This document shows, one piece after another, positions 173 through 55,130 of a stretch of 64,000 nucleotides of DNA (position 1 is its first letter; each line of letters begins with the position of its first letter). Below the pieces are notes generated by a model. It was not told the origin of the DNA and ran no database searches. It was given only the letters and a program-made list of their open reading frames with translations. Source of the DNA: an uncultured Desulfobacter sp. (GTDB lineage Bacteria; Desulfobacterota; Desulfobacteria; Desulfobacterales; Desulfobacteraceae); contig OY762069.1 of assembly GCA_963665095.1 (NCBI GenBank), positions 5,568,001 to 5,632,000 on the forward strand, read 5' to 3'. The position numbers were made by a program, and so were the translations under genes.

Positions 173-2296
173 TTATACAGGAATGAACACCATGCAGAGG
201 ACATCATTAACATACCCGTCCTCACGCTTGTATTCCCTGTATCCTTCAGACACCTGTATCCCCATGGCATAGGACCGGGCACCAAGTGTGACCACATCAG
301 ACTTTCTGGCCCCATTTTTCAGTGAAAAGAATTTATCCTCTATGGACAGGTCGGATCCCACAGGATAGTCAGGCGTAGTTGAGGAGATAATTTTTTTTGC
401 CCGGTCTGCAAATACGGCAAAACTACCCTCAATAATCTCTTTATTCTCATTTTTTGGCAGAATATCCGAAAGCATGGCCTTAAACTGAGGTTCGGCATCA
501 AATACAATAAGAATGGTACCCACTGGCCGGGTTATATCTTCCGGGTCGCGCACGGCTGTACCATAAACATAGGTGAACCGCCCCCCGTAAAGGGGCGTTG
601 AAGAAAATTGAGTCACACAATAATCTTTGCCTGATGGCAACGCCATGGCCCGGCTTACGATGTTCCCGGGTATTTTCATGCCGACGAAATCCTGGCCCTT
701 GGGAAGATCGGGCTGTACAAACCGCTCTTCAAGCTCATGGGGCGGATTTGAAACGGCCACCACCTCTCCTGCGCCATCTGTCAGCACAAGCCTTAAGTAA
801 GGGGTGTACAGATTATTGATGTATTCCAGGTTATCCCTGAGGGCTTCGGCAGCCTGTTTTTCAAGACGGTTTCGGTTCAGGCCGGCCAAAGTGCTGCGAA
901 ACAATGGGGTCAGCGCCCACCAGCACACATCATTGGCTCTTTCGTACAGATTTCTGTCGGCAATATTATTTCCCTGAAAGGCCCTGAACTCAACGTCAGT
1001 GAATAAAGAGGCGGCCACGGTCTGCTGGAGGCTGTCAATGGCCGAGTGGAAAAGACGGTCTATTTCCACTCCGATCTCCTCTACAAAATGAAGAATCTCA
1101 ACAAAGGTCTTGTCCTTGAACTTGGCGGCCTGGATAATGCCATTGAGTCCGTCGATTTTCATATTGGTTAAAAGATCATCAGAATCTTTTTTAATGACGG
1201 CCAGGTCCCGGGAAAAATTCTGGATCTGCCGGATGGTATCGTGGTCAATCGATGTCTGATTTTCATCCTTTGAAAAGGCTATGGCCGTATCTATCATGGC
1301 AAAACCATGCCAGGGCAGACCATAAAACCCCTGATATCCGTCTGTAGGCACGATGCAGGCCAGATACTCTTTACCATTAACGGAGATGATCTCAAATTCA
1401 GAATCCGAATTCACAGATATGGCAGTGGACACGGGCAGCATTGTGGCAGCGCTGGAACTGATCACCCGGCCTTTATCGTCAAGGATGGCTGAAATAATGG
1501 CGTCATTCCCCTGCTTCAGGTCCGCAAAGATACCGGCCATCTCATCCTCAAAATCAAAACAGAGACATAAGGTGCCTAAGGGCCTTTGGGTATCGGCGTC
1601 TTCAATTTTCTGGGAATAGATCAGAACATCCCTCCTGCCCGGCATCAGGTCGGTGGTCCGGAAGGTTTCAACAAATTTATTCTCATCCGGATCTCTATGA
1701 AGATCAATGGCCTGGGTCCTTGCAAGAAGGCGGTCCCGGGAGAAGGAGACAGGGTTATTTTCATCCAGATTGGCCACCACATTACCATTCAGATCAAGTA
1801 TGATAATTTCATTGTAAACCGTGTACTCATACCGGTACTCTTCCAGCCGGCTTCTTAAGGCATGCCGCTGCTCCTCAAGGCAGTGTGTCCGTGTGTCATC
1901 TGCGGCATGTTTTAAAAAATTAACGATTTCCCCATCTGTGGCCAGATACCCCACATCAGCTGTGCGCTCAAACAAATTTCGTTTCAGAATATTGATGGTG
2001 AATCCGGCTGCATCCCGGATTTCGTGAATTACTTTGCCGGCCATCTCAACAAGCACGGCATCGGTGAGCCGGGCTTGGATCTTCTCATAACGGCTGATAG
2101 TGCTGCTCATATCCTGAATAAGCGGCCCAAAAAGATTGGCAGCTTCTTTTTTCATCCGGCCTGTTTCTATCTTCCCTGCTGTAATCGCGCCCCGCCAGCG
2201 CTGATTAATCTGTTTGAAACGCCCATTGGCGCGGGAAATATCAGTGATAAATTTAAGGAAACGGTCTTTTTGGGAAATAATCGTATCTTGTTTCAT
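173..2296 (-). CDS. Soluble chemosensory-like protein with an internally duplicated Cache-like unit
   Basis: 707 aa ORF. Duplicated motifs RNLFERTADVGYLA / RNLYERANDVCWWA, IYSQKI..GTLCLCFDFE / VYGTAV..GTILIVFDAE and GYQGF / GYREY. No TM helix seen. Confidence 0.6.
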   Translation of the reverse strand: MKQDTIISQKDRFLKFITDISRANGRFKQINQRWRGAITAGKIETGRMKKEAANLFGPLIQDMSSTISRYEKIQARLTDAVLVEMAGKVIHEIRDAAGFTINILKRNLFERTADVGYLATDGEIVNFLKHAADDTRTHCLEEQRHALRSRLEEYRYEYTVYNEIIILDLNGNVVANLDENNPVSFSRDRLLARTQAIDLHRDPDENKFVETFRTTDLMPGRRDVLIYSQKIEDADTQRPLGTLCLCFDFEDEMAGIFADLKQGNDAIISAILDDKGRVISSSAATMLPVSTAISVNSDSEFEIISVNGKEYLACIVPTDGYQGFYGLPWHGFAMIDTAIAFSKDENQTSIDHDTIRQIQNFSRDLAVIKKDSDDLLTNMKIDGLNGIIQAAKFKDKTFVEILHFVEEIGVEIDRLFHSAIDSLQQTVAASLFTDVEFRAFQGNNIADRNLYERANDVCWWALTPLFRSTLAGLNRNRLEKQAAEALRDNLEYINNLYTPYLRLVLTDGAGEVVAVSNPPHELEERFVQPDLPKGQDFVGMKIPGNIVSRAMALPSGKDYCVTQFSSTPLYGGRFTYVYGTAVRDPEDITRPVGTILIVFDAEPQFKAMLSDILPKNENKEIIEGSFAVFADRAKKIISSTTPDYPVGSDLSIEDKFFSLKNGARKSDVVTLGARSYAMGIQVSEGYREYKREDGYVNDVLCMVFIPV

Positions 2297-3953: not shown

Positions 3954-6149
3954 TCATTCAATATCCACAGACCAGCCGATAATCGCCACATCATTGGGAT
4001 CAACATTGCTGGTGTCGTCTGCAACCCAGACCACTACAATATATTTCCCTGCTTCGGTAAACGTATATTCAATGGCATTGGAAGTGACCCATTCTGATGC
4101 CGTCATACTCTCCCATAAGGTTGGATCATAACTGTCTGTACCGTAATTACGGCACATTGAGAACCTGTAATAGTTCGTATTCGCGCAGGTATTTTCTGCC
4201 GTAACAGCAAAGCCCACCGGCTCATCAACAACCTGTTCTCCAGTAATTTCCACCCGGCTAAAATGAATCTTGCATCCCGTGTCTCCGGTATCAACGGACC
4301 AGCCGATAATCGGGACATTGACATTGTCAACGTCAGCGGTATCAGCAGATGTTGCCCAGATAACAACGATATCCTTGCCCTGGCTGTCAAAAAGATATCC
4401 ACAGCTATTGTCTGTAATATACTCAGCATCTGTCATTCTGACCCAGCCGTTTTCATCATAATCTGAAGTTCCGTACCCCTGATTGATGGAAAATCTATAG
4501 GATATATCACTGCCGCTTTCTGCCAGGGAGGTAAGTTTTACAGAGGAACCCGCTGATGGCGTTCCGGTGACTTCCATACCTTTAATCTTACAGCGGCCTG
4601 TCAACGCGACATTCTGCTCAACGGTCTGGGCCAGGGGAATGTCAATATTTGAAAAAGACTGTGTCTGATATCCATCTGCACTCACAGAGACATCATAGGT
4701 TCCGGGCAATACCGAACTGATAAAGGACCCGTCCGGTAACGGATAGAGCGTATACCCCAGTTCCGTCAGCGTAACTTCCGCCGGAGAGATCTGTGACCCG
4801 GTTATTGCATCAAAGACGGCTCCTTTGAACCATGAACCGATCCCAAATCCGCAGGGATCCACAATAATGCCATTGGCCTCTCCGTCAGCGTCTGCTTCTC
4901 CACCATCGGTAATTTCAATGACAGCTGATTTCCGGTCCGTGCTGAATTGCGCATAATCAGAATAATCAATCCAGCCGGTCACAGGATGATATACATACCA
5001 TGAAGCATTCTCGGGAGCAGCTTCACTGAAATAGATTTTTACGTGGACCGTATCCCCGGGATTGAGGACTGTGATATTATATGTCATTAGCCCAAGAGGC
5101 ATGGTTTCGGGTCGTAAATCATAGGAGATGGTATCCGGATCAATCGCATCAACATTTCGGATGTCAACCCCTTCTGTAGAGACAGCCGCACTAACGCCTA
5201 ACAGCCCAGTCCCATCAATTGCAAGAAATGTTTTAATTTCGTCTGTCTGTTGAATATCCGGTATCCCGTCATCATTTAGATCGGCTCTCTGGTCTTCAAT
5301 GACATCGGGAATCCCGTTTCCATCTGAATCCGCAAAAATCCTTTCGGTTGTAAAAGAAAACGCCTGGGACCACGGAGAAACCTCGCCCCGGTTGTCTGTA
5401 AAACGAGCCCGCCAAAAATAAGTCGTCCCTTCCGCCAAAAGAGAAAAAGGAATCTGAAGGTCAAAAATATCTCTTCCAGTGGACTGGGACAGGACAATGT
5501 ACGAAAAGCCCTCCGAATCACTGATCTGCCACTGGGCTTGAAGAAAAGTATCCTCCTCACCAGGATCGTTAATCTCCAGGGTGGACACCATTGAGACATT
5601 GGTTGCCTGATCCTCGGGAAAGACGGGTTCAGGCGTTTCAGGGGGATTTGCTTCAACACCGTAGATATCCATTGTAAAGGCACAGGAATAACAAAGCCCG
5701 TCAGCGCTGCATCGGGTATAGGTCCCTGACGCATTATCAGGCGGCTGTACAGATGAAACAGTAAACTGGATGACACCGGTGCTCTGGTCGTCAAATTCAA
5801 CAGGGGATTCGCTGTTATTGTATCTTGCGCCTTCTACATTGCCTGTAACCCTTATCGCTTCCTGTCCATCACCTAATTCAAACGTATCATCCTCATCTCT
5901 TTGGAAAATATACCCGGCTGTAAATGTGGGTGCATAATCGGTTTCATTATCGCAGTACACTTTGGTAATTTGGAATCTATCCCATTCACCTTCAGCGATA
6001 GAGTATTTTATTGTCTCAGCACAAAGCATGGACAACGGCAGAAAGAAAAGAACACATGTAACGCCTGCCACGCTATGGCAAAGGGCTTTTTGAAAAAAAA
6101 ATTTTGAAAATGACAACACATTGGAATTTTTGTCTGTATTAAATTTCAT
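3954..6149 (-). CDS. Secreted surface protein: FN3-like, choice-of-anchor U-like and carboxypeptidase-regulatory-like domains, plus two C-terminal ~100-aa repeats
   Basis: Hydrophobic N-terminus. TYFWRARFTD (FN3), DSDGNGIPD/DLNDDGIPD, ITDGGEADADGEANGIIVDP, PGTYDVSVSADGY, and a duplicated YRFS..YGT..YD..W..MT..E..K.IVV.W..IIGWSVD unit. Confidence 0.75.
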   Translation of the reverse strand: MKFNTDKNSNVLSFSKFFFQKALCHSVAGVTCVLFFLPLSMLCAETIKYSIAEGEWDRFQITKVYCDNETDYAPTFTAGYIFQRDEDDTFELGDGQEAIRVTGNVEGARYNNSESPVEFDDQSTGVIQFTVSSVQPPDNASGTYTRCSADGLCYSCAFTMDIYGVEANPPETPEPVFPEDQATNVSMVSTLEINDPGEEDTFLQAQWQISDSEGFSYIVLSQSTGRDIFDLQIPFSLLAEGTTYFWRARFTDNRGEVSPWSQAFSFTTERIFADSDGNGIPDVIEDQRADLNDDGIPDIQQTDEIKTFLAIDGTGLLGVSAAVSTEGVDIRNVDAIDPDTISYDLRPETMPLGLMTYNITVLNPGDTVHVKIYFSEAAPENASWYVYHPVTGWIDYSDYAQFSTDRKSAVIEITDGGEADADGEANGIIVDPCGFGIGSWFKGAVFDAITGSQISPAEVTLTELGYTLYPLPDGSFISSVLPGTYDVSVSADGYQTQSFSNIDIPLAQTVEQNVALTGRCKIKGMEVTGTPSAGSSVKLTSLAESGSDISYRFSINQGYGTSDYDENGWVRMTDAEYITDNSCGYLFDSQGKDIVVIWATSADTADVDNVNVPIIGWSVDTGDTGCKIHFSRVEITGEQVVDEPVGFAVTAENTCANTNYYRFSMCRNYGTDSYDPTLWESMTASEWVTSNAIEYTFTEAGKYIVVVWVADDTSNVDPNDVAIIGWSVDIE

Positions 6150-6445
6150 ATTTTCACACCCTTGACTTAAGGTACGCTTAAAAAACTGTTAAAAATTTAC
6201 CAGCCCCCTCCGCAGAAATAAAAACACAGAGAATCAATCAGATCTAAACTTACCAATAAAACAGACAGTTATAATTTGTCAAACAAATAAACCGTTAAAG
6301 TTGACAGACGTTTTTAATTAATAGTATTAAGCAATTGATCTCTACAATACAACTATTTTTACAAGTTATGGTACAATCGGGGTCGTAATATCCGGCAATA
6401 CCGACATCAACGTTTCACTGTTTCACTAATTCGGGAAACTGACCC

Positions 6446-7807
6446 ATGCAAGGCTTACGTAAAACATACCCGGCCCAATTGCTATATTATATAATGCTGT
6501 TGCTCTTAACCGGTACAAGTTTTCTTATCCCGACTCAGGGTCGCGCCGATCTAAGCACCACAGATACGATTGAGCTGTATGGTTCCCCCAATCCCGTAGG
6601 ATCCGGAGCCAGAGCACTTGGCATGGGCGGAGCTTTTATTGCCCTTGCCGATGACGCAACAGCAGCGTCCTGGAATCCAGGCGGCCTGATTCAGCTTGAG
6701 CTTCCTGAAATATCGGTCGTGGGGGCCTATTTTGACCGAAGTTTAGACACTGAATTCACGGATTTTCCTGAAGCCCGGAATGAACAACATGCATCAGATA
6801 CAAGCATCAACTACCTAAGTTTCTCATATCCCTTTTATGCTTTGGGCCGAAACATGACGGTCTCATTCAACTATCAGGAACTGTACAACTTCGATAATCA
6901 ATGGAGTTTCCATGTCATTGAAAACAACGATACAACGACCCGACAGATTAACGGCTGGCAGGAAGGGTCCCTGTCAGCCTTCGGCCTCGCCTTATGTGCC
7001 GAGGTTTACCGGAATCTGTCTTTTGGGCTTACATTAAACTTCTGGCAAGATGGCATGGGGCATGAGAACCAGTGGGAACAGCGCACGCGAAAAAACAGTT
7101 CCGGTGTAAACGGCAGCTATAGTTTCACCCAGAGTGAATATTACACAGATCGATATGAATTCAGCGGATTTAACGCCAATCTTGGTTTTCTGTGGAATAT
7201 AACACCCAAACTGACAATGGGAGGGGTGCTTAAAACCCCTTTCACCGCGGATCTGACGCATAAGGCCCATTATACCACCCAACTGGAATTTCCCGGTTAC
7301 CCGGATTCCACAAGTACCATGGACTATTCTTCCTCGACAGATGAAAAACTTGACATGCCAATGTCATACGGGATCGGGATTGCCTGGCGGGCATCGGATC
7401 GACTCACCGTTTCAGGGGACCTGTACCGTACCGAATGGGAAGATTTCCTTCTTACCGATGGAAATGGGAAAAAAACATCCCCCATAACAGGAAAGTCCAA
7501 GGGAGATTCAGATATAGACCCGACCCATCAGGTTCGGCTGGGCGTTGAATATTTACTCATCAAACCCAAATACGTCATTCCGTTACGCAGTGGAGTATTT
7601 TACGATCCGGCTCCTGCAGAAGGCCACCCGGATAACTATTTTGGATTAAGTCTGGGATCCGGGCTTGCCTACAAAAAATTTATTTTTGATTTTGCCATCC
7701 AGTATCGATTTGGAAACGATGTGGGCGCATACGCCTCCCAGGACTTGGATTATTCACAGGATGTGCAGGAAATTATAGTCTATTCATCTTTTATCATTCA
7801 TTTTTAA
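6446..7807 (+). CDS. FadL/OmpP1/TodX (PorV-like) outer-membrane beta-barrel
   Basis: Signal peptide, GARALGMGGAFIALADDATAASWNPGGL hatch motif, amphipathic strands, C-terminal Phe. Confidence 0.88.
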   Translation: MQGLRKTYPAQLLYYIMLLLLTGTSFLIPTQGRADLSTTDTIELYGSPNPVGSGARALGMGGAFIALADDATAASWNPGGLIQLELPEISVVGAYFDRSLDTEFTDFPEARNEQHASDTSINYLSFSYPFYALGRNMTVSFNYQELYNFDNQWSFHVIENNDTTTRQINGWQEGSLSAFGLALCAEVYRNLSFGLTLNFWQDGMGHENQWEQRTRKNSSGVNGSYSFTQSEYYTDRYEFSGFNANLGFLWNITPKLTMGGVLKTPFTADLTHKAHYTTQLEFPGYPDSTSTMDYSSSTDEKLDMPMSYGIGIAWRASDRLTVSGDLYRTEWEDFLLTDGNGKKTSPITGKSKGDSDIDPTHQVRLGVEYLLIKPKYVIPLRSGVFYDPAPAEGHPDNYFGLSLGSGLAYKKFIFDFAIQYRFGNDVGAYASQDLDYSQDVQEIIVYSSFIIHF

Positions 7808-7830
7808 CCAATGCCAAGAGGGCTTTTACG

Positions 7831-9939
7831 ATGTCTAAAGAAGAACAAAAACCCAGTTTAGAGACATTGTTTCGGGAAAAAGAGAAAATCGAACAGTCGA
7901 TCAAAGAAGGGTTTCAGGAATACGTCACCATCATGTTCACCGATATTGCCGGCTACACCCGGTATGTGGAAACCCATGGAGACATTGCCGCAAAATCCCT
8001 TTTGCAGACCCACAATGACACGCTGTTCCCGATCATCAGTGCCCATGAGGGTCAGGTTATCAAAACCATTGGTGATGCGGTCATGGCCTCATTTAAAGAG
8101 GCGCACAAAGGTGTCGCCGCCGCCGTTGAAATTCAAAAAAAGCTAAAGCAGCATAATGAAACTGCAGAGGATGTCAAGCAGCTGAATATCCGTATCGGCA
8201 TGAATGCAGGCCTGGCACTCAAAGACGGGGCCGATTACTTTGGAGATGCTGTCAACATCGCAGCCAGAATTGAGCCTGCCGGTTCTGCCGGCCAAATCAT
8301 GGTCTCTGACTCCGTTTACCAGGCCATTGAAGGAGACAAGAATTTTTATTGCAGCTACCATGGCCTGAAAGAGGCAAAGGGGAAAGCAGACCCCTTGAAA
8401 ATCTACAGGGTATTTCTCAGTCGTGATGAGCAGATGCAGCAGGCTTCCCACAGCCCCCCCCCATCATCAGAATCCCATGTTGAAGGCGAAATAGAGAGGG
8501 TTGGCGGCTTCCGGAGCAGATGGATAAACTGGAAGTACACCCTGGCCGCCTGTTTTGCAGCGTTGGCCTTTTTTATTTATACAGGTGGAGAATTCCCTTT
8601 CCACCGGGGTAATGAGCTTACAATTGAGAACTATAAAGCCGGTTTTAACTACTTGAAAACCGGTGCCCCGGATAAGGCCAAAGAAAAATTCCTTGAACTT
8701 AAGCAGGACCCTGCCCGGTCAAACGAAGGACTTGCCGCCTGGGCCTATCATGCCGGGGACCATGCGTCAGCCCGGCAGTATAGCGAAGCGTCATTGAAGC
8801 ATGATGCCAATTTACTTTATTCACGGGTCATCGAAGGCAATATCCTGTTTGACGAAGGAAAATACGATCAGGCCAGTGAGCTGTACACAAAAGCGGCAGG
8901 GCTTGCATCCCCGTTGAACTGGCAAAAAGGGGAAGCCCTGTTTCGCCTTGGCAGAATTTTCTCTTCAAAAGGGGACAGCTCAAAAGCCCTTTCCTGCTAT
9001 AATCAGGCCATATCTTTTGACCGCCAGAACAGCGATCTCATAAAGGCAAAGGCAGTGCTGCTGGAAAAAATGGGAAAACTGGAGCAGGCCCTGGAGGCAT
9101 TTCAAAATGCACAGAGCATCACCCCTGACGATAAGCTGATCAGCGCCTTTACCAGCCGGATTCAGCAGAAATTAGAGATGGGCCGGGACAAAGAGCGTCA
9201 AAAGCGAATTGACACCCTTGTCAACGAGCTTGTGGACACAATGAAGCACACGTCCTCCCGGCAACCGGCAGACACCTGGACGTCAAGACCCTTGAGCCTT
9301 TTTATCGCAAAAATGGAGAGAAAAGGGAAAATATCTTTACAGGAAGGAGAGGACGACTTCTTTCAGCTTGAGCTGTTTGAAGAGTTAAGACAGCTGCCCT
9401 GTGTCAGTATTGTGGACCGTGAACTGTTGGACAAACTGCTGACCGAACTTAAGATAAGCAGCTCTGATCTTGCAGACCCGGAAACAGCACTTCACCTCGG
9501 CCGTATAGTTTCGGCCCGTTTAATAGGGGACTTGACATTCCTCGGCATGGACAATGAGACCCGGATTTATTTTAAGCTGATTGAAACGGAAACATCTCAA
9601 ATAAAAGTCAGTGTTTCCGACCGCTTCAGTATTGCCGGTGATCAGGATACCGCCGTCAGCAGAATGGTTGCCCAGGTTGACCGGAAACTGTCATCTGCCT
9701 TTCCCATCCGCGGGCGGATAGTGAATATTGACGCAGAAAATATTGAGATCAATATCGGATCAGATGTCGGCCTGAAAACTGGTATGATCATGGGGACTTA
9801 CACCCTTGACGGAAAAAACAGAAAAAGAACCGGAGCCGTAAAGGTAACCCGGGTTGAAACGAACACAGCGTCAGGGCAGATAGTCAAGGGACAGGGTATT
9901 GTGGATCAGACTCAGGTTCTGGAAGTGCTTGCATTATGA
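7831..9939 (+). CDS. Class III adenylate cyclase - TM - TPR - CsgG/FlgT-like protein
   Basis: MFTDIAGYT, IKTIGDAVMA and DYFGDAVNIAARIE catalytic motifs; TM TLAACFAALAFFIYTG; TPR helices; IVDRELLDKLLTELKIS CsgG-like motif; IRGRIVNI..IEINIGSDVG C-terminal beta domain. Confidence 0.85.
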   Translation: MSKEEQKPSLETLFREKEKIEQSIKEGFQEYVTIMFTDIAGYTRYVETHGDIAAKSLLQTHNDTLFPIISAHEGQVIKTIGDAVMASFKEAHKGVAAAVEIQKKLKQHNETAEDVKQLNIRIGMNAGLALKDGADYFGDAVNIAARIEPAGSAGQIMVSDSVYQAIEGDKNFYCSYHGLKEAKGKADPLKIYRVFLSRDEQMQQASHSPPPSSESHVEGEIERVGGFRSRWINWKYTLAACFAALAFFIYTGGEFPFHRGNELTIENYKAGFNYLKTGAPDKAKEKFLELKQDPARSNEGLAAWAYHAGDHASARQYSEASLKHDANLLYSRVIEGNILFDEGKYDQASELYTKAAGLASPLNWQKGEALFRLGRIFSSKGDSSKALSCYNQAISFDRQNSDLIKAKAVLLEKMGKLEQALEAFQNAQSITPDDKLISAFTSRIQQKLEMGRDKERQKRIDTLVNELVDTMKHTSSRQPADTWTSRPLSLFIAKMERKGKISLQEGEDDFFQLELFEELRQLPCVSIVDRELLDKLLTELKISSSDLADPETALHLGRIVSARLIGDLTFLGMDNETRIYFKLIETETSQIKVSVSDRFSIAGDQDTAVSRMVAQVDRKLSSAFPIRGRIVNIDAENIEINIGSDVGLKTGMIMGTYTLDGKNRKRTGAVKVTRVETNTASGQIVKGQGIVDQTQVLEVLAL

Positions 9940-12023
9940 AAAAAATTATTGGTTTCCAAATCTGTACCATCATAGTTCTTTCTTTTATGGCCTGTGTTTC
10001 ATCGCCCCCGCAAAACAGCTACATAAAGGACGGGAAAGAATACGGTGTTACCCGGGGATTATTCCGGGGGAAATGGTGGAATTATTATGAAAGAGGCATC
10101 TCCTTTGGTGAGGGAGATTTCCTGAATGAGGCACAGAACGATTTAGAAACCGCCATTGCCCAGAGAGGCCGGGATCAGCGGATGGCCCGGACCTATGGCA
10201 TGCACTTTATAGATTATTTCCCCCACCGGGAACTTGGCATTGTGCTGCTTAGAAAAGGGGAGCTCACAAAAGCTGTCCGTGAGCTTGAAATTTCGCTGTC
10301 CGGCCAGGAAAGTGCAAAAGCAAAATTTTATCTCAATGAAGCCAGAAAACGTAAAATCAGATCAGATGGCAAAGATACGAGCCCCCCGCTTGTCCAGATT
10401 TCCAGGCCCATGGACAACAATCCGGTAAACCATGCTGAAGTTAAAATCCAGGGGCAGGTATCGGATAACACCTTTGTATCATCCATATTTATAAACGGTG
10501 TTCCCGAATTTATAGAACTTTCTGAAGAAACCATCTCCTTTAGCAGAAGCATTCCCCTGAAACCGGGCCCCAACCCTTTGACTATCAGGGCAGAAGATCT
10601 TGCCGGCAATGTTGCAGAAAAAAGAATGACCATTATTGCTGATTACCATGGTCCCAATATCTCCATACTCAATTATGAAAACGGCCAGCGTGTTGATGTC
10701 AACGATATTGAAATTCGGGTGTCTTATTCAGATGAATCCGGCATAAAAACGCTTAAAATTAACGGGGACGAAAAAAGAATCACAGAAGAATCGCACTTCC
10801 ACGGAACCGTAGCCGCTCCGGTCTCACTCCAAAACGGTGAAAACAAAATACCCGTTGAAGCATGGGATACCGCAGGCAATCGAACTAAAGGAGAGATCCG
10901 TCTTTCATATTATCCTGGAAAACTTGTCGCATGTAACAGTGCGGTTACTCAAGTGTTATTATCTAAGACTGCTACGGATGCAGGTTATATTGCGACAAAG
11001 GCTGAAACGCCTCCCTTAAAAGAGCCTGATATCCAGCCCAGGGGCCTGTTAAAGGTCATTGCCGACCATCAGCCATTAACCATAACAAATAAAAAAATCA
11101 ACAACCGTATTTTCATAGAGGCCCAGGTCTCCAATGATTGTCCGGTCAAACAAATTCTGGTCAATGACATGCCGGTAGAATTTCAGCAGGGAAAAACCAT
11201 TGCGTTCAGCCGTATAGTGGACTTTCAGGAAGGGGAAAATATATTTACCATAACCGCAACAGATGCCAAGGGCAACGCATCAAGCAAATCCCTGACAGTG
11301 ACCCGAAAAATTCAAAGTATCGATCTGGACCAGTCTAAAATGGCCCTGTCCATTATGCCCTTTAAATCAGACACCCTGTCCAAAGAGACAAAAGAGTCAA
11401 TTCCCCCGGTTTTTCTGCAGGAGTTGTTAAATTTGGAACGATTTAAAATCGTAGAAAGAGGGGAAGACTTTGAGCCTGTTCTAAAGGAACTCAAGTTGAG
11501 CCAAACCGATCTGGTAGATCCCGATAAAGCGGTCAGGGCCGGAAAGCTTCTGGCCAGTGAAGCCGTGGTAACCGGGCAGGTTATTGAAACAAAAAACGGC
11601 ATTGAAATCTTTGCCAAGCTGATCAACGTTGAAACCACTGAATGCCTCGCCATCCAGGATGTATACGGCCAGGACAAGTCAAAAGAAAATCTTAGATATC
11701 TGCTGGAAGGCCTTGCTTCAAAACTTGCCTACTCGGTTCCGGTAATGGAAGGGAAGATCCTTGGAATCAAAGGAAAAGAAATTTTTATCGATATCGGAAC
11801 ATCCAGATATTATAATTTGAAAAAAGGGATAAAATGCATTGCCTACCGGAGTGAACCCTTTATTTTAGATGGTGTAAATCTCGGAGTAGACACATCCATA
11901 TTGGGAACCCTGAGCATTGAGCGGGCCAATCCCCAATTTTCAAGCACAGTAAGAGTGATACCAGAAAGTCAAGATGTGGAGCTACCGGTGATAAAAAAAC
12001 AGGACCTTGTTATTACCAAATGA
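9936..12023 (+). CDS. Lipoprotein with TPR, Ig-like repeats and a CsgG/FlgT-like C-terminus
   Basis: Lipobox LSFMAC; Ig repeats (GPNPLTIRAEDLAGN, GENKIPVEAWDTAGN, GENIFTITATDAKGN); IVERGEDFEPVLKELKLSQ motif; start overlaps the upstream stop (ATGA). Confidence 0.78.
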   Translation: MKKIIGFQICTIIVLSFMACVSSPPQNSYIKDGKEYGVTRGLFRGKWWNYYERGISFGEGDFLNEAQNDLETAIAQRGRDQRMARTYGMHFIDYFPHRELGIVLLRKGELTKAVRELEISLSGQESAKAKFYLNEARKRKIRSDGKDTSPPLVQISRPMDNNPVNHAEVKIQGQVSDNTFVSSIFINGVPEFIELSEETISFSRSIPLKPGPNPLTIRAEDLAGNVAEKRMTIIADYHGPNISILNYENGQRVDVNDIEIRVSYSDESGIKTLKINGDEKRITEESHFHGTVAAPVSLQNGENKIPVEAWDTAGNRTKGEIRLSYYPGKLVACNSAVTQVLLSKTATDAGYIATKAETPPLKEPDIQPRGLLKVIADHQPLTITNKKINNRIFIEAQVSNDCPVKQILVNDMPVEFQQGKTIAFSRIVDFQEGENIFTITATDAKGNASSKSLTVTRKIQSIDLDQSKMALSIMPFKSDTLSKETKESIPPVFLQELLNLERFKIVERGEDFEPVLKELKLSQTDLVDPDKAVRAGKLLASEAVVTGQVIETKNGIEIFAKLINVETTECLAIQDVYGQDKSKENLRYLLEGLASKLAYSVPVMEGKILGIKGKEIFIDIGTSRYYNLKKGIKCIAYRSEPFILDGVNLGVDTSILGTLSIERANPQFSSTVRVIPESQDVELPVIKKQDLVITK

Positions 12024-12328
12024 CTTTTCAGTTTCTTGAGGTCATTTCCCTATAAAGCCCCCTTTATGAACAGCAAGCGAAACTCTGACTCATGCATCCA
12101 TGAAAGCAATGGATGAAAATGTTTTTATGAGATATAGAGGACGCTATTTTCTTAGCGTTATGAACAGGCACGAACTTTTTTATTGTGGCACTCATCAATC
12201 ATGTGATACATGATTTTTTCAAAATAACCGTGGATTAAATTCCGGATTTCTTTTAACAGGGGATGATTTGTGGTTTCTATATAGTATGTTTTCTTTCTCT
12301 TTCATAAAATATTCAGGCAATTATCATT

Positions 12329-13726
12329 ATGGAGTCAAACAAATCAAGTCACAAAAGTCGGGCCAGTAATGCGCAATACTTAATCAATTATTTCAAAAAA
12401 TTAGGCTTTTCAGAATCAAAATTAATGAAGGGGGTGTCTGTAAACAAAAGTTTTCTTGCAGACCCTCATAACTGGCTCCCAATCAATGATTTTCATCAAA
12501 TCGTTCAAAACTGCCAGAAAGCTATTCCTCAATTAACGATAGATGATTGGCAAGACATCGCATCTTTCATCAAAGAGGGTGAGACAACCGGTATATGGAA
12601 AACCATCGGCAAATTTATCGGAGTCAAGTCTCTTTATTCTTTAACTCCGCAGTATACAAAGAGCTTTAACACATATATTTTTCTAAAAATCAACAGCATC
12701 TCCAACACCTCTGTGGATATGCAAATTATTTCAGATCCAAATGTCTGTTCTGTGATTATGGTAAGGTGGACTGTGGGTGTGTTACAAGCCATTCCATGCA
12801 TATTGGGGCTACCGACTGCAAAAACCCGTATTTTGTTCGATCAGGCTGATATAAAAAGTGTAGTCAAGGATCTGTACACCTTCCACGACTTAGACTACAT
12901 GGAAAATCAGGGCGTCATATATATTAAAGGCAAAGCTTATGCACGGCGTATTCAACTTCACCAAACGATCCATAACGGAGAGGTGCTTTTTTCATATCAG
13001 TATTCAGATGAACAGCCGTATAATTCCACCCTCATAACAGAAGATTTGATTGTAAATAATAGTAGACTGCTGAAAAAAGGGGACATATTTAACGCGCCAT
13101 ATGGCAGGGTTATCATAACCTGGGATCAGACAAAAACTAAGTACCCCTTTATGCATTCCCGCAGACTCAAAGAGGAATTGTTGATAGCTTTCAACACCCA
13201 ACTGACCCTGGCCGACAACAGATATTTAGAAGCAGAAAGGCTTCGCCAGGATGCATGTAAAAAAAATATTGCGTTACAACAGGCACTGAAAGAACTTGAG
13301 AAAACAAAAAATGCACTTCAGGTGTATTGGGAACAGAAAGCCAGGGACAGAGCCGAGCTTGAAAAAAAAGCCGTTTTAAAAATCAAAAATATTGTGAACC
13401 CCGGCCTTAGGCAGCTATATGAAAGCGGCCTGAACACCTCCCAGAAGAAAAAGCTTGATCAGCTCAATCGGAAAATAGATGATGCACTATTGCCCTTTGC
13501 CACACACATGACGCTGAAAGATTACAATTTAACTCCGGCTGAATTACGAATTATAAACCTTATTCAAAAAGGATTGCAGTCTAAAGAAATAAGTGAGTCC
13601 CTCAATATTTCCCTGCGAACGGTTGAAACCCATCGAATGAACATTCGAAAAAAACTTGATATCTCCAATCAGGGAATGAATCTTTCGACATACCTTTTGT
13701 CGATAAAACAAACAGACCTCGTATAA
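12329..13726 (+). CDS. LuxR-family regulator with a large N-terminal sensory region
   Basis: C-terminal LTPAELRIINLIQKGLQSKEISESLNISLRTVETHRMNIRKKL, preceded by a coiled coil. Confidence 0.88.
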   Translation: MESNKSSHKSRASNAQYLINYFKKLGFSESKLMKGVSVNKSFLADPHNWLPINDFHQIVQNCQKAIPQLTIDDWQDIASFIKEGETTGIWKTIGKFIGVKSLYSLTPQYTKSFNTYIFLKINSISNTSVDMQIISDPNVCSVIMVRWTVGVLQAIPCILGLPTAKTRILFDQADIKSVVKDLYTFHDLDYMENQGVIYIKGKAYARRIQLHQTIHNGEVLFSYQYSDEQPYNSTLITEDLIVNNSRLLKKGDIFNAPYGRVIITWDQTKTKYPFMHSRRLKEELLIAFNTQLTLADNRYLEAERLRQDACKKNIALQQALKELEKTKNALQVYWEQKARDRAELEKKAVLKIKNIVNPGLRQLYESGLNTSQKKKLDQLNRKIDDALLPFATHMTLKDYNLTPAELRIINLIQKGLQSKEISESLNISLRTVETHRMNIRKKLDISNQGMNLSTYLLSIKQTDLV

Positions 13727-14244
13727 AACATCCTGTCTCTCACCCGCCTGGTCATGCCCTTGTGAAAGGCAGGACCCCGTCAGTGCGGATTTACGCAGAA
13801 TGCCTGAACAAAAAACAGGCTGTTCTTCCGAATATGTAACAGCGGAAAATGACGCCTATACAGTTTCTCCCCCAACAGCCTGGGATTGTATGCCATGTCC
13901 GGTTATATGCGACTACATAGTGTTTCTAGGTAGTTATTACGTATTAATTCCGGGTTGTATGCAATAAGCTTATCATATACAAAAACTAATTAATTTTTTG
14001 TTTTAAAATCATATGGTTTTAGACAAAATAGAAAAAATTTGCGGCAATGGTTGATGGACTATCGTACTCGTTTCTCTATCTTTCCGATTTCTTATTAATC
14101 AAGAAGAGTTTTCCAGAAAGGGGGTGATTTAAAAAACAGATGGGATTTTTAAAAAAAAGAATCCACCTAAAAACAGCAAAATCATTCTTGGAACTACTTC
14201 AGGCTCAACCCCTTACAATTTGAAAGCAAGGAGGACAAGAAACT

Positions 14245-15258
14245 ATGAAAAGATTCATTTTTCTTTTTATCATCATTTTAAATATCGGTTTTATTGGTTC
14301 TGTTAATGCAGCTGAACTTTTACTTGAAAATTTTGAAAATTCAACGTCAGGCACCATAAATGGGGCGACATATACATCTAATGGCTATCAGGGATACGGG
14401 ATGTTATTTAATGAACCGGGGGATTATGTAAAATTTCATTCATCAAAATTCCCATCTGAAGGGACATTTGAAGCCTACATTTATATAACTGGTGATAACT
14501 CTGCATGGAGCAAAGATATTATATTTGATACAAATGCCCGGGCTGGATATTCAGGTGCTCATATTGCTTTATACCTTACAGAAGAACGAAAATTAATGTT
14601 TAGAGAATGGGGCTCAACAATACCTGCAATATATAATGTTTTTGGCACTACAGAGCTCTCATTGAATACATGGTATGCAATTGGGGTAAGCTGGGGAGCC
14701 CAGGGCGTGCATATATATGTCAATGGAGAATTAGATGCTTCAGACACCTCTCTGACATATAGCTGGGATGCCGATGAGAGTGTTTATTTAGGGGATTGTC
14801 CTGATGATGACTGGGCAGGCTCAAACTATTATAATTCTTTTTACGGTATTCTTGATTCAGTCCGGACCTCAAATGTTCAACAAGATATTACTTATTCCAT
14901 TTCTGAGGATTGTGAGGTTGACATTGATGGGCTGATCATTTCAGGAACTAAAGAAGTAGGCTCGGCCATAACATTCTCCGTTGAAGCCAACAACACCTGT
15001 AGCAGTACTATTTATTATAGGTACACATATCATGCAGGATATGGAACAGATGATTATGATGGTCTGCATTGGAATCTTATGACGGATTCTGAATACACAA
15101 CAGAAAGCACTATAAGTTTTACCTTTGATGAAGCGGATAAGTATATTGTTGTAGTTTGGGCAAAAAACTCGCCATCAGATTCAAATGAAGGCGTTCCAAT
15201 TATCGGAATTGACGTAACTATTCGGGAAGAGGGAGAAGAACCGTATTTTCCGTTTTAG
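14245..15258 (+). CDS. Secreted LamG/concanavalin-like protein with the C-terminal domain shared with 3954..6149
   Basis: Signal peptide ending VNA-A; GTFEAYIY and LNTWYAIGVSWG..HIYVNGEL LamG motifs; RBS aaggagg. Confidence 0.8.
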   Translation: MKRFIFLFIIILNIGFIGSVNAAELLLENFENSTSGTINGATYTSNGYQGYGMLFNEPGDYVKFHSSKFPSEGTFEAYIYITGDNSAWSKDIIFDTNARAGYSGAHIALYLTEERKLMFREWGSTIPAIYNVFGTTELSLNTWYAIGVSWGAQGVHIYVNGELDASDTSLTYSWDADESVYLGDCPDDDWAGSNYYNSFYGILDSVRTSNVQQDITYSISEDCEVDIDGLIISGTKEVGSAITFSVEANNTCSSTIYYRYTYHAGYGTDDYDGLHWNLMTDSEYTTESTISFTFDEADKYIVVVWAKNSPSDSNEGVPIIGIDVTIREEGEEPYFPF

Positions 15259-19813: not shown

Positions 19814-21754
19814 CTAAGGATATACTGCAACCCCATAAATAAGAACCGGCGTTGTCTTGCCCTTCACAAGAACATGGCCACGCCGGTTTAAAAAAAACTC
19901 CTGTGGCCTGTCCAGCAGATCCGCTACATCTGATGAGACAATAATCTGCTCATTCTTCTTCTTTGTCAGGCTTTCAAGGCGTGAGGCAATATTAACGGCA
20001 TCGCCTATTACAGTCGAATCCATGCGGTCTGACGTGCCCACCGTGCCGATCACCACTTTGCCGATATGAATGCCGATACCCATCTCAAGTTTTGGCTTGT
20101 CCGTGTCGTTTGCGTTCCGGTTGAACTGCACAAGGGCCTGATGCATTTCCACTGCAGCCCTGACAGCGTTTCTGGCGCTGTGGGCAGGGGTTTTTCCATC
20201 CGAATCAAACAGCGCCATAATGGCATCTCCCAAAAACTTATCAATGAAACCATGGTTTCTGTGAATGGGTTCACTCATGGCGCTGAAAAACGAATTTAAA
20301 AAATTCAGGAGCTGTTCCGGTCTCATCTTTTCAGAAAGGGTGGTAAAGGAACGGATATCACAGAATAAAACAGCAATGGTGTCATTTTCAGCATTTCCCA
20401 CTGCAATGCTTCGGATGCCTTTTTTTGCAATGTGGTCCAAAAACCGGGATGGCACAAATTTTTTAAACGCAGTAACCAGCCCTTCAATTTTATTATAGTA
20501 TCGGGAATATTGTATGGCCATCACAAGAGCCTGGCTAAGAATCATAACCAAAAGACCCAGTGGCATGTAGTTGCCGGTTTTAATCACTTCATCAGAATAA
20601 AGGATATCGTTTACAACACTGGCGGAAAACACAGTGAAGCCGAATAGAATGAATCCTGAACCACTCCGGCGCCGAACCGTTGCCTGGACCAGACGGATCA
20701 GCGTGTAGATGCAGTACCCCATTGCAATGAATTTAAACGAGGGCGTAAAAATCCAGAAAATTTTTACGGGAAGAAAACAAACCGGAATGGCGTAAATCAG
20801 CCCCAGCACGGCTGCTACTCCAAGAAATCGTTTTGAAAACTCTTTTGGAAAAACAGATGCCAGAAAACCTGCAAAAGCCGGCAGCAGCAGATACAGGCAA
20901 AGGATCATGATTTTTCGTAAAACCTGCCAGGAAAAATCAGGATAAACCTGTGTGACAAGGGTTAAATCCGTGGTCAGATTCCTTAGCGAAATCAAAAGGC
21001 AAATCAGGAAAAAGTACAGATGAGACAGGTTTGTGCGCCGGAAATAAAACAGCAGGAAATGGTACCCGCCCATGGTGAGAATACTTCCGATTACCAGCAG
21101 CGTGATGCCGTTGACAAAGGCGTGATGCCTGCGGATCTCTTTTTCATTTCCCAGTTTTATTGACCGGACAATACCGCCGTCGGCATGGCTGAAATTGGAC
21201 ACCTGAACAAGGATGTCACACTTTTTATGCGCTGGCCTGAAGGAGATAACCCGGCTTAGGCTCTGAGGCGTTGCCCTGTCCGGCCGGGTACCGACAATGC
21301 CGTTCCCGCCGACGGACTTTCCGTCTATCCACATTCTGTAGGCGGTTGACATATATAGAATGCTCAACGCCAGGGAGTGATCGGTGGCCGGCAGAATCAG
21401 CTGCAGTCGGTAGGTTGCGTAGCCGCAGCTGTCAAACCGCTTGCCAGGGGCCTGGTTGTGCCGGGTCCAGGACTGAGGCACCGGGATATATCCCGTCTGC
21501 CTGGGCAGAGGCGCAGATGAAAAATCCTTTGGTGTCAGAAGCGTTTGCCAGTAGAACTGCCAGTCCCCATCCAGGTTGATAAAGTCTGTTTTTTCAAAAT
21601 TTATTCCGGAAAGATCCAGTACCCCGTTGGCAGCCTTTGGTTTCGCTACCGGCATTCGGGCCGTTGCGAAGCCCTGGGAAGGGATTATTACGGCGATTAC
21701 CATAATCCATGGAAAAATGGTTTTTCGCCATACCATGTTTAATAGCCGTGTCAT
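19814..21754 (-). CDS. 7TM-DISM-type sensor adenylate/guanylate cyclase
   Basis: LDGDWQFYW/GYATYRL extracellular domain, 7 hydrophobic helices, FCDIRSFT, DKFLGDAIMALF, TVIGDAVNIASRLE. Confidence 0.9.
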   Translation of the reverse strand: MTRLLNMVWRKTIFPWIMVIAVIIPSQGFATARMPVAKPKAANGVLDLSGINFEKTDFINLDGDWQFYWQTLLTPKDFSSAPLPRQTGYIPVPQSWTRHNQAPGKRFDSCGYATYRLQLILPATDHSLALSILYMSTAYRMWIDGKSVGGNGIVGTRPDRATPQSLSRVISFRPAHKKCDILVQVSNFSHADGGIVRSIKLGNEKEIRRHHAFVNGITLLVIGSILTMGGYHFLLFYFRRTNLSHLYFFLICLLISLRNLTTDLTLVTQVYPDFSWQVLRKIMILCLYLLLPAFAGFLASVFPKEFSKRFLGVAAVLGLIYAIPVCFLPVKIFWIFTPSFKFIAMGYCIYTLIRLVQATVRRRSGSGFILFGFTVFSASVVNDILYSDEVIKTGNYMPLGLLVMILSQALVMAIQYSRYYNKIEGLVTAFKKFVPSRFLDHIAKKGIRSIAVGNAENDTIAVLFCDIRSFTTLSEKMRPEQLLNFLNSFFSAMSEPIHRNHGFIDKFLGDAIMALFDSDGKTPAHSARNAVRAAVEMHQALVQFNRNANDTDKPKLEMGIGIHIGKVVIGTVGTSDRMDSTVIGDAVNIASRLESLTKKKNEQIIVSSDVADLLDRPQEFFLNRRGHVLVKGKTTPVLIYGVAVYP

Positions 21755-53099: not shown

Positions 53100-53820
53100 T
53101 CATCCAGCCCTCCTTTGCTGCTGTCTACCAAAATATATTTCCGCCGGTGTCTGACCCTCAAAACTTTGATGAGGCCGTTCATGGTTATAAAAATCAAAGT
53201 ATTGCTTTAGGGACTTGCGTAGTTGCTCAACAGATTGAAATTCGTTCACATAAATTTCTTCATACTTCACGCTGCGCCATAGCCGCTCTATGAAAATATT
53301 GTCCATGGCCCGCCCTTTTCCGTCCATACTAATTTTAATCCCCTTATCTTTCAGGACTTTTGTGAACTCATGGCTGGTGTATTGCGCACCTTGGTCTGTG
53401 TTAAATATATGGGGTGTGCCATGACGTCTTAGTGCTCTTTCAAGGGCCGATACACAAAACTCACTATCCATGGTTACCGAAAGTTCCCAAGACAAGACAT
53501 AGCGGCTGTGCCAATCCATGACAGCCGTTAAATATACGAACCCACCGGCCAGGCGGATATATGTCAAATCAGTACACCACACCTGATCTGCCCTGGTTAC
53601 ATCAAAATTCCTTAAAAGATATGGGTATATTTTATGTTGGGGGTGGGCTCTACTCGTATTCGGTTTCGGGGCTATGGACTGAATCCCCATTTTACGCATC
53701 AATCTCTGAACTCGTTTACGATTGATTTTATACCCTTTGCGCATTAAAACATTGCGCATTTGGCGAGTCCCGTAGAAGGGGTGATCCGTGTATTCTTTGT
53801 CAATGATTTTCATTATCTCT
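53100..53820 (-). mobile_element. IS3-family transposase OrfB fragment, 5' end truncated by the IS4 element
   Basis: HPFYGTRQM, WCTDLTYI, FNTDQGAQY, DNIFIERLWRSVKYE, YNHERPHQS. No OrfA present. Confidence 0.9.
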
Positions 53821-55130
53821 CAGTAGTGTCCGGTTAGGTTTTTGCTTGCTCAGTAATTTTTTGATCTTTGACAATATTGTCTCTGTTTGAACCGTGAAAA
53901 GCATCATTGTTGCTCTCAATCAGATCATTCAAGATGGCTGTTCGTAACTGCCGAACCCTTTTAATAGTAACCTTTTCATTAAACTCGTTTCGACAGTAGA
54001 TTGCAAGCAACAGATACGTGATGAGGCCGCTAAGGATTTGCACCATAAGGCCATATTCGCTGCGGGCAATGAGGTGGTAAACTTTCAGGTGTCCTTTCCA
54101 CCATTTGAAAAAATCTTCAATGGTCCACCGGAGCTTATATATGGTTGCTATTTGCTCTGCCGTTAAATCATGCCTGTCAGTTGCTACATAGTATTTCACG
54201 CCGGCAATTTTATAGCCAACAACCCGGACGGGAGTTTTTGTCTGGTTCAGGTTCGGAGTGCCAAGGAAGACCAGAGCATCATAGAAAATGTAGCTGCCAT
54301 AGTTGACCTCGTGAGTCTCAATTACCGTTCTGGTTGTTTTGGCTTTTATACGGCAAACAAAATGCTTGCCTTGTGCCTGTAGCAAGTCAAAATCGTGATG
54401 TGATTGATAGCCACGGTCCATAACACCTGTTTGCCCCTCGGTAAGTATCTTTGGGACAAAAGGGCGCTCCCCGCCGTTGCCTTCTGTCAGGAATATTTTG
54501 TTTGGAATGCCGTGATTTATGTCAAATCCGCAATGCGCTTTGGCTTTTTTACTTCCTTTCCTGTAGTTTGCCCAATGCATTGAAAGGACGGCATTTATAA
54601 GGCTGCCGTCAATGGAAACCAGATCGCCCAACTCGGCATGCTCCTTTGGCAGGCACCCAACAGCCTGTTTATAAAGATCTTCGAAGACAAATTGCAGTTG
54701 TTCAAGCCCTCGGTGGTTGACTGCTTCACAAAAGCTGCTGCGGCTGATACCGCCTTCCGGAGCAATATGTTCTTTGGCAAAAATATTTTCCTTGAGATCT
54801 TGGACTAAATGCCGGGCTGATTTGTGTTCCTGCAGATGAAAATAAATCAGGGCATTTATCTGGTCTTCGAATGTCATTTTTAAAGGTCGGTCTCCTCGAG
54901 ATTGCAATTCTGGTGCTTGTGGAAGCGACCTTATCAGAGGGTTACGGAACTTGTCAAAATTCAGGGACGATATTATGGCTTTGGTAATTGAAATGCGCGT
55001 CATTTGGGCTCCTTGATAAAATTTTTCAAGGCGCGCAAAAATTTTTACGCACATTTGTCAACATAAAAATGACGTTTTTTGAATAATTTTAGATATTTTT
55101 TATATGCAACAACCTAACCGGACACTACTG
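53821..55130 (-). mobile_element. IS4-family insertion sequence (1310 bp)
   Basis: Perfect 20-bp TIR cagtagtgtccggttaggtt (53821-53840) / aacctaaccggacactactg (55111-55130). Confidence 0.92.
53834..55054 (-). CDS. IS4-family DDE transposase (start may be the later MTRIS)
   Basis: SIDGS, MDRGY and YKLRWTIEDFFK (YREK) motifs. Confidence 0.92.
   Translation of the reverse strand: MCVKIFARLEKFYQGAQMTRISITKAIISSLNFDKFRNPLIRSLPQAPELQSRGDRPLKMTFEDQINALIYFHLQEHKSARHLVQDLKENIFAKEHIAPEGGISRSSFCEAVNHRGLEQLQFVFEDLYKQAVGCLPKEHAELGDLVSIDGSLINAVLSMHWANYRKGSKKAKAHCGFDINHGIPNKIFLTEGNGGERPFVPKILTEGQTGVMDRGYQSHHDFDLLQAQGKHFVCRIKAKTTRTVIETHEVNYGSYIFYDALVFLGTPNLNQTKTPVRVVGYKIAGVKYYVATDRHDLTAEQIATIYKLRWTIEDFFKWWKGHLKVYHLIARSEYGLMVQILSGLITYLLLAIYCRNEFNEKVTIKRVRQLRTAILNDLIESNNDAFHGSNRDNIVKDQKITEQAKT

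Follow-up and report, generated by a model that had tools for sequence, protein, structure and literature searches.

The locus raises the question whether three tightly coupled genes, encoding an outer-membrane β-barrel, a receptor with a class III cyclase domain and a large lipoprotein, form an export machine for the secreted proteins encoded beside them, or a relay that reports events at the cell surface to the cytoplasm as cyclic AMP (cAMP). Both options had been raised in a preliminary description of the window, i.e. the whole analysed stretch of 64,000 nucleotides of contig OY762069.1 (GCA_963665095.1), in which the locus spans positions 3954..15258. Its six open reading frames (ORFs) were verified (Table 1), and the described genes, the 23-nucleotide gap between barrel and cyclase gene, the ATGA overlap at the cyclase/lipoprotein junction and the domain shared by the flanking secreted proteins were all present. 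The domain calls were borne out by Pfam and NCBIfam, with matches to Toluene_X in the barrel, Guanylate_cyc, TPR and CsgG in the receptor, Ig and CsgG in the lipoprotein, choice_anch_U (over cut-off) in the left flanking protein, GerE in a LuxR-type regulator and Laminin_G_3 in the right flanking protein. We lean slightly towards reading barrel, lipoprotein and cyclase as a signalling relay across both membranes, from the surface to cAMP.

Conservation of the core genes

Homologues were surveyed in a phylum sample (401 genomes), an order sample (251 genomes) and a family sample (121 genomes), and in the own genome of the window, a single 6.9-Mb contig. Profile searches of the phylum sample found the barrel in 20 genomes and the lipoprotein in 21, with all 20 barrel genomes also carrying the lipoprotein; the extra lipoprotein match was a 303-residue ORF spanning the CsgG part only. 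The two genes were located within 5 kb of each other in 17 of these 20 genomes (within 600 bp in 14), and the remaining three carried them either on different small contigs (two genomes) or 69 kb apart (one genome). In the order sample, the lipoprotein was found in 49 and the barrel in 47 genomes, with both in 45, only the lipoprotein in four, only a weak barrel match of 30% identity in two, and neither in 200. The phylum hits spread over 19-20 genera, and named close homologues belong to Desulfamplus, Desulfobacula and other Thermodesulfobacteriota. A co-occurrence survey of the core genes had been suggested together with the initial claim of a coupled system, and for these two genes the coupling held: barrel and lipoprotein are inherited together as a conserved core.

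Exchange of the output enzyme

In 40 loci centred on the lipoprotein, a selection of its matches in the order sample, local profiles detected the barrel in 22, a CHAT domain in 18, a sigma factor of the extracytoplasmic function (ECF) type in 18 and a zf-HC2 anti-sigma-like protein in 17. All fetched loci together contained 35 distinct receptors ending in a CsgG-like domain, 11 with cyclase and CHAT domains, 17 with CHAT only and seven with the cyclase only. A hydrophobic segment separates output and CsgG part in 34 of the 35, and the His-Cys pair is kept in 27 of their 28 CHAT domains; among the anti-sigma-like proteins of the relatives, one of 32 has a hydrophobic segment.

The CHAT/ECF form and the set in the window have in common the barrel, the TPR-Ig-CsgG lipoprotein and a membrane receptor with a CsgG-like end. 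The window contains no CHAT domain and no linked sigma or anti-sigma gene; in its receptor, about 45 residues lie between cyclase and membrane segment, where CHAT is absent. The two CHAT proteins of the own genome are encoded elsewhere, are of unrelated build and gave no CsgG-like match, and no anti-sigma orthologue was found in that genome (best anti-sigma-like match E 2e-4). Cyclase-only receptors were found in 7 and cyclase+CHAT receptors in 2 of the 121 genomes of the family sample; neither form occurred in any of 19 further genomes from the genus, six of which carried the CHAT-only form with sigma and anti-sigma genes. In all seven cyclase-only genomes the lipoprotein gene directly follows the receptor gene and the fetched stretch is free of sigma and anti-sigma genes; the order barrel-cyclase-lipoprotein is repeated in genomes G252 and G323. 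Barrel, receptor and lipoprotein genes are conserved as one set, as the preliminary description had proposed, and the window set is a protease-free, sigma-free version of a gene set that recurs in sulfate reducers and their relatives, and in its receptor the periplasmic end is fixed and the cytoplasmic enzyme exchanged. Since the periplasmic ends are fixed and the cytoplasmic enzymes interchangeable, a signalling relay is favoured, and the second option of the preliminary description, a surface event relayed into cAMP, is the best reading of the locus.

Two further observations concern the outputs of relatives. Seven of 22 cyclase+CHAT receptors (L027, L035, L037, L039, L040, L245, P0145) have the adenine-specifying Lys/Asp pair replaced (Asp or Ala with His; Glu with Ala) and keep Asn/Arg; these may make another cyclic nucleotide, or serve as a dimerisation switch only. 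Ser/Thr kinase and TPR genes follow the lipoprotein gene at L027:13281-16474 and L028:11953-13311, possibly a further type of output.

The receptor cyclase

Class III cyclases use two metal-binding aspartates, a Lys/Asp pair recognising adenine, an Asn/Arg pair and a phosphate-binding lysine. The window receptor has the corresponding residues D38, K78, D82, D135, N142, R146 and K183, none of which varies in any of the 21 aligned relatives. As had been stated from the outset, the class III cyclase is intact; its active site has the full set of residues, and its product is predicted to be cAMP. The subfamily comprised 22 clusters without CHAT among 28 matches. In a quick tree, the cyclase-only receptors formed one clade of 21 rows (Shimodaira-Hasegawa-like approximate likelihood ratio test 100); as its root was not fixed, the tree is silent on loss versus gain of CHAT. 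A locus search with the cyclase alignment was dominated by generic cyclases, and the top 8 of 80 and the top 11 of 79 loci were inspected. The own genome encodes about ten related cyclase domains; one further membrane cyclase (7TMR-DISM and class III) lies in the window at 19814-21754 (-), 8 kb from the module.

The lipoprotein and the CsgG-like domains

The CsgG-like ends of receptor and lipoprotein are homologous (29% identity over 161 residues, E 7e-11), and both exceeded the Pfam CsgG cut-off when each was scanned alone. The structural model of the lipoprotein (predicted local distance difference test, pLDDT, 82) consists of TPR helices, three Ig domains, a CsgG-like core and a small C-terminal barrel, for which a match to TsaP (E 9e-7) and, by Foldseek, one to FlgT were obtained. 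The core matched CsgG, PelC, the FlgT ring, TolB-N and LpoB with Z-scores of 10.8-13.0.

These folds bear on the first option of the preliminary description, in which CsgG-like rings would act with a PorV-like shuttle to export proteins with a shared C-terminal domain. Among single structures, CsgG is indeed the best match to the core of the lipoprotein (Z 13.0, 121 aligned of 206), but the profile of this core is closer to LpoB (E 7e-4, with an ungapped fit) than to CsgG (E 0.26). The CsgG pore is built from two membrane-spanning β-hairpins per subunit. In the lipoprotein model, strands 524-532, 537-545 and 551-559 are joined by turns of 4-5 residues, so that the core, as modelled, has no membrane hairpins of the CsgG type. 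A CsgG-type pore was rejected on these two grounds, the missing hairpins and the better fit to LpoB.

Among 7999 candidates scored, 871 relatives of the lipoprotein were found at E<=1e-10. The most conserved part of the lipoprotein, directly behind the lipid anchor, is the motif F..W...Y.R ... D.R.ARTYG.H..DY.PHRE, with columns F24, D61, T67, G69, D74, Y75, P77, E80 and G82 invariant in 31 sequences; we consider this motif a candidate contact site for the barrel. Lipoprotein variants of 950-1060 residues were seen in L048, L050, L051, L052, L053 and L057. In the L048 protein, the variant that was scanned, a caspase (Peptidase_C14) domain is inserted among the Ig domains and would therefore be periplasmic.

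The outer-membrane barrel

Profile matches of the barrel were Toluene_X (E 9e-13), BamG (E 7e-26; 91.1 bits, cut-off 250), PorV_fam (E 2e-11; 44.1 bits, cut-off 90) and FadL (E 0.008; 14.9 bits, cut-off 585), the last three lying below their cut-offs; a sequence search of the PDB gave weak matches alone. The AlphaFold2 model (pLDDT 85) superposed on FadL and BamG with Z-scores of 35.0-35.5 and root-mean-square deviations of 3.4-3.8 over about 365 aligned residues, on TodX with Z 31, and on chain 6h3i_F of the T9SS (type IX secretion system) translocon, which we take to be PorV, with Z 25.8. BamG ranked first in Foldseek and was the best NCBIfam match. Across 22 relatives, barrel identity is 39-55%, and an NPA-like motif is kept as NPG, NPA or NPS with N43 and P44 invariant. 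In BamG, a conserved N-terminal extension of about 10 residues passes through the lateral opening; the N-terminus of the window barrel extends about 9-11 residues beyond that of FadL, is modelled there with pLDDT <50 and varies in length among the relatives.

The tied fold scores (Z 35.5 and 35.3) and the retained N43 and P44 would suit a small-molecule sensor, in which a hydrophobic molecule would enter the barrel or be bound by it, as in FadL or TodX, and lipoprotein and receptor would report it as cAMP; a relay from an outer-membrane receptor to an inner-membrane kinase has been reported for aromatic hydrocarbons (PMC10570129, available text). The family scores point away from FadL and to BamG. 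The closest gene of fatty-acid type within the window encodes an enoyl-CoA hydratase and lies at a distance of 18 kb, and 39 of the 47 barrels directly adjoin the lipoprotein, the receptor or a secreted protein. We therefore regard such a sensor as unlikely, and by family score and gene context the barrel does not group with ordinary fatty-acid importers in a β-oxidation context, the outcome that the preliminary description had set against its own proposal.

Sensing of envelope stress or attack, as in the RcsF-OmpA-IgaA arrangement, is a second way to read a barrel with a lipoprotein partner: the barrel would hold the lipoprotein, which would reach the receptor upon disturbance of outer-membrane assembly. 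The three-tier anatomy is alike, BamG is the best match of the barrel in both searches, and the CHAT/anti-sigma output of the relatives resembles defence regulators (PMC11506125, PMC10028731, in the portions available). This reading has similarly little in its favour overall: no defence genes stood out among 53 neighbours in a Pfam scan, for which the dedicated PADLOC library was not used, the neighbours are adhesin-like, and the patchy spread (20 of 401 genomes) is ill-suited to housekeeping surveillance.

The own genome encodes a second barrel, 47% identical, within L001:10547-17709 (G000:C1 about 2672543-2679708), preceded by an NHL-repeat protein and a smaller protein with two copies each of the domain shared by the flanking proteins, and followed by a small CarboxypepD_reg protein. 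At L280:8150-10880 (G231), a distant FadL-type barrel is directly followed by a 407-residue protein with the N-terminal motif of the lipoprotein, which may be a more divergent version of the pairing of barrel and TPR protein.

Secreted neighbours of the barrels

Secreted neighbours were counted with a crude secretion rule for 47 distinct barrels from top-ranked loci, using only the own genome as background. A predicted secreted protein of at least 300 residues adjoins or is fused to 31 of the 47 barrels, compared to 27% of own-genome genes, and one of at least 800 residues to 18 of the 47, compared to 3.1%. The neighbours contain NHL, PKD, Ig, LamG, peptidase C13, cohesin and choice-of-anchor U domains, and their tails are unrelated (dockerin-like, GG-CFI, the shared domain of the flanking proteins, and others). 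The barrels may dock these large neighbours; the adjacency speaks for such docking or else for co-regulation.

Such pairs could also constitute a surface anchor, the barrel holding the neighbouring secreted protein and the TPR lipoprotein bracing it from below, as PorP/SprF with PorE, with the cyclase only monitoring or loosely linked. Besides the 31 of 47 neighbours, passenger-barrel polyproteins in three genomes of three families speak for it, as do the pairs of genes for shared-domain proteins that precede the second own-genome barrel and the G252 barrel, and the PorE-PorP-PG1035 complex (PMC9143113, available part) offers a precedent. We nevertheless consider an anchor doubtful: no common tag is visible, the tails of the neighbours being unrelated although the barrels are 39-55% identical; the same adjacency would be expected from co-regulation; and the CsgG-like domain shared by the receptor is left unexplained.

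The polyproteins (L040:11048-15073(-), L044:11052-15704(-) and L246:5237-10723(+)) lead from the secreted passenger through a GG-x-CFI box, a hydrophobic segment, a basic patch and a further hydrophobic segment, at whose end lies a signal-peptidase-like site, to the barrel; the L040 passenger is a BNR/Vps10-like propeller. In L035 and L247, a related passenger terminates behind the CFI box and is directly followed by a separate barrel gene. Cohesin proteins and dockerin-like tails, labelled by eye, cluster beside barrels in L065, L257, L260, L032 and L062, which may point to a surface scaffold of sulfate reducers that resembles the cellulosome.

The domain shared by the flanking proteins

The flanking secreted proteins share a domain of about 105 residues (44% identity, E 4e-21), here called YGT, of which the left protein has two copies and the right one. 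Weak matches to PKD and Y_Y_Y, together with an Atlas score of 0.83 to Y_Y_Y clusters that is a lead only, make it likely an Ig domain of the PKD/Y_Y_Y type. The own genome holds 39 copies in 24 ORFs (e.g. in L004, L005 and L001), 23 of which meet a rough secretion rule. The domain is C-terminal in 15 carriers, directly behind the signal peptide in eight and internal in one. It was found in 7 of the 251 order genomes, three of which gave weak or single matches and one more a partial match, and in 4 of the 121 family genomes. Expansions occur in G000, G012, G075, G252 and G315, strongly in G012 and G075 within the order sample, often with tandem pairs at either end of the protein; the domain behaves as a surface module in the manner of dockerins.

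That a domain is shared by the flanking proteins was thus correct, but it is not specifically C-terminal. A role in export by the locus might be argued from the 15 C-terminal carriers and from the YGT genes that adjoin both own-genome barrels and, as a pair, directly precede barrel, cyclase and lipoprotein in G252. Against this, 9 of the 24 carriers have the domain elsewhere, and it is expanded in three genomes without a barrel of the family, G012 (16 matches), G075 (19 of 19 scored) and G315 (7), the first two of which also have no full lipoprotein. Conversely, YGT was absent from all 44 other order-sample genomes with both barrel and lipoprotein, so that co-occurrence of the core with shared-domain proteins did not appear in the rest of that sample, and choice-of-anchor U genes, the other companions to be surveyed, were found in 3 of the 40 relative loci. 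YGT was rejected as an export tag on account of its non-C-terminal copies and its expansion in barrel-less genomes. A search of the own genome for T9SS markers gave no SprA match and one Por tail below the cut-off, a weak negative as control genomes also gave no match. Two GspD secretins of the own genome were over cut-off and could offer a standard exit by type II secretion. Taken with the structure of the lipoprotein core, an export machine is very improbable, and the locus probably does not export its flanking proteins.

Proposed mechanism

In the relay that we favour, the outer face of the barrel would bind the input, and the signal would pass via the lipoprotein to the predicted inner-membrane receptor. 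The lipoprotein would hang from the outer membrane and bind the barrel via its conserved TPR motif, with the Ig domains as a spacer; the homologous CsgG/LpoB-like domains of lipoprotein and receptor would dock on each other, and docking would alter cyclase dimerisation and so switch the cyclase, with cAMP as the predicted product. Least certain are the two ends. The input would most likely be occupancy of the barrel by a neighbouring large secreted protein exiting via type II secretion, and the reader of cAMP would probably be one of the genome's non-CRP proteins binding cyclic nucleotide monophosphates (cNMP); 5 of its 15 cNMP domains match the cAMP motif. More tentatively, it is possible that the barrels are docking posts for large secreted surface proteins, and that the CsgG-like domains on both membranes stack into rings through which docking controls exchangeable enzymes (a cyclase in the window, and elsewhere a caspase-like protease that releases a sigma factor), which would define a TonB-independent class of surface signalling.

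Several results weigh against the relay. No reader of its output was found: the two CRP/FNR-like proteins of the own genome are without the cAMP-binding Arg motif (a third helix-turn-helix match is not CRP) and CRP sites are not enriched upstream of YGT genes (2 of 24, versus 573 of 3910). The membrane segment of the window receptor has a Kyte-Doolittle value of 1.46 over 19 residues, compared to 1.83-3.06 for the matching alignment position of 20 relatives; it is the weakest of the 35 receptors and the only one below the hydropathy threshold of 1.6. This qualifies the earlier assignment as an inner-membrane protein; because the segment is aligned between the same invariant residues as in the relatives, it probably still serves as membrane anchor. 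BamG and FadL importers are not told apart by the fold search, both giving a Z of about 35. Further copies of the barrel, among them the second one of the own genome, have no lipoprotein or receptor nearby, and in G037 the barrel is 69 kb from the lipoprotein. Finally, related genomes in the samples are not independent, and the 18 of 47 large neighbours depend on the crude rule, the top-ranked loci and the one-genome background.

Further features of the window

The left flanking protein is probably associated with the module; in G323, a divergent gene at the same position shares its Ig/fn3 stretch. Because of their low guanine-cytosine (GC) content (39% for the LuxR gene, 38% for the LamG gene) and the lack of homologues in the searched loci, the LuxR and LamG genes were rejected as core parts and are treated as passengers: the N-terminal region of LuxR had no homologue elsewhere in the own genome or in any fetched locus, and LamG had none in loci L026-L065. 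The LuxR gene that had been counted into the locus is thus present, but probably as a passenger. Its N-terminal domain (12329-13228) gave no Pfam match and no usable Atlas match; 11 relatives were seen, two of them fused to histidine kinase domains, and since such relatives exist it is probably an unnamed cytoplasmic sensor. Predictions of sigma-70 promoters (18 versus 22.4) and of terminators (10 versus 12.2) were at chance level. Elsewhere in the window, 173-2296 (-) encodes a 707-residue protein that has Cache-like repeats but neither an obvious membrane helix nor an obvious output domain, and the right end, of low GC content (53100-55054, 58441-61725, 62259-63866), encodes two insertion-sequence genes, a 1094-residue Big_12 Ig protein and a Ser/Thr kinase.

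Table 1. Features of the locus, in window coordinates.
Feature	Position	Strand	Assignment and basis
Divergent secreted protein, 731 residues: Ig/fn3-like, choice-of-anchor U, CarboxypepD_reg, two YGT Ig-like domains	3954..6149	-	probably module-associated
Two tandem YGT domains (~105 residues each), likely PKD/Y_Y_Y-type Ig	3963..4598	-	
Outer-membrane barrel, FadL/BamG/PorV fold, 453 residues, signal peptide, invariant plug motif	6446..7807	+	module core; Pfam, NCBIfam, AlphaFold2 model, structure search
Receptor, 702 residues: class III cyclase, predicted membrane segment, TPR, CsgG/LpoB-like core, small β-barrel; without CHAT	7831..9939	+	
Cyclase domain, full catalytic and adenine-specifying residue set	7918..8400	+	Guanylate_cyc E 1e-24
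Likely single transmembrane segment, receptor residues 237-255	8539..8595	+	hydropathy, weaker than in relatives
Lipoprotein, 695 residues, Cys20: TPR helices, three Ig domains, CsgG/LpoB/PelC-like core, small β-barrel	9936..12023	+	module core
Most conserved stretch of the lipoprotein, candidate barrel-binding site	10062..10238	+	invariant columns
LuxR-type regulator with 300-residue N-terminal domain of no assigned family	12329..13726	+	GerE; probably passenger
Secreted LamG protein with one YGT domain at 14911-15219	14245..15258	+	probably passenger

Relation to known systems

A literature search found no description of the module, although a survey of ECF factors or conflict systems may mention it in a supplementary table; the available part of 10.1101/2023.06.07.544157 mentions neither the CFI box nor Desulfo- taxa nor PorV. 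What the present analysis contributes is the clade of cyclases without protease and sigma factor, together with evidence that speaks against a sorting role of the shared domain. If the relay is real, it would be a new two-membrane signalling route, relying neither on TonB-dependent receptors nor on two-component kinases, would give FadL-fold barrels and pore-less CsgG-like domains a new role, and would represent a single sensor chassis wired to proteolysis or to cAMP. The module may explain how the many giant surface proteins of sulfate reducers are controlled and retained, and its cyclase-only form, with three genes and a cAMP readout, is the most readily testable.

Signalling of the FecA-FecR-FecI type comprises a TonB-dependent receptor, a membrane anti-sigma of the FecR type and an ECF sigma factor. 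Like such TonB-dependent transducers (PMC11637429 and PMC2729926, available parts), the locus combines an outer-membrane barrel, an inner-membrane sensor and a cytoplasmic output, and its relatives use ECF sigma factors. It differs in the FadL fold of the barrel and the large lipoprotein adaptor, in the soluble anti-sigma of the relatives (a hydrophobic segment in 1 of 32), and in the window output, a cyclase with no sigma factor linked.

BamG of the Bacteroidota BAM complex is a FadL-fold barrel that binds a surface protein or lipoprotein in a non-transport role (excerpts of PMC12578637 and PMC12611786). The window barrel has this fold, finds its best NCBIfam and Foldseek match there and putatively binds a lipoprotein partner; however, it scores 91 bits against a cut-off of 250 at about 14% identity, its family is patchy and multi-copy where BamG is essential, with an N-terminal extension of variable length, and the partner lipoprotein is predicted to be periplasmic. 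The pairing of a barrel with a large secreted neighbour and a TPR lipoprotein recalls the PorV shuttle of the T9SS (PMC12578637), the PorE-PorP-PG1035 complex (PMC9143113), both as far as the available text goes, and SprF-SprB; in contrast to these, the own genome gave no translocon match and no Por tail over cut-off, a weak negative given the silent controls, the neighbours have no conserved C-terminal signal, the PorV_fam score is 44 bits against 90, and a signalling enzyme is linked. FadL/TodX importers share the plugged barrel with an NPA-type motif, whereas the family score (14.9 versus 585) and a gene context without lipid catabolism set the window barrel apart.

With DdvA/DdvS of Myxococcus xanthus (PMC11506125) and Csx29/Csx30/CASP-sigma of type III-E CRISPR (PMC10028731), as described in the accessible parts of both papers, the relatives share a CHAT-bearing receptor next to an ECF sigma factor and a zinc-finger anti-sigma-like gene, whereas the window has neither CHAT nor sigma or anti-sigma; no CRISPR link was found in the neighbours scanned. 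The CHAT domain of DdvA is periplasmic and incomplete according to the available text of PMC11506125, in contrast to that of the receptor relatives, which is predicted to be cytoplasmic with its His-Cys pair intact. Finally, the CsgG-like domains have the core fold of the CsgG/FlgT/PelC/LpoB/TolB-N family (Z 10.8-13.0 for the lipoprotein core), but differ in having no membrane hairpins in the lipoprotein model, in their fusion to TPR, Ig and enzyme modules, and in their predicted occurrence once on each membrane.

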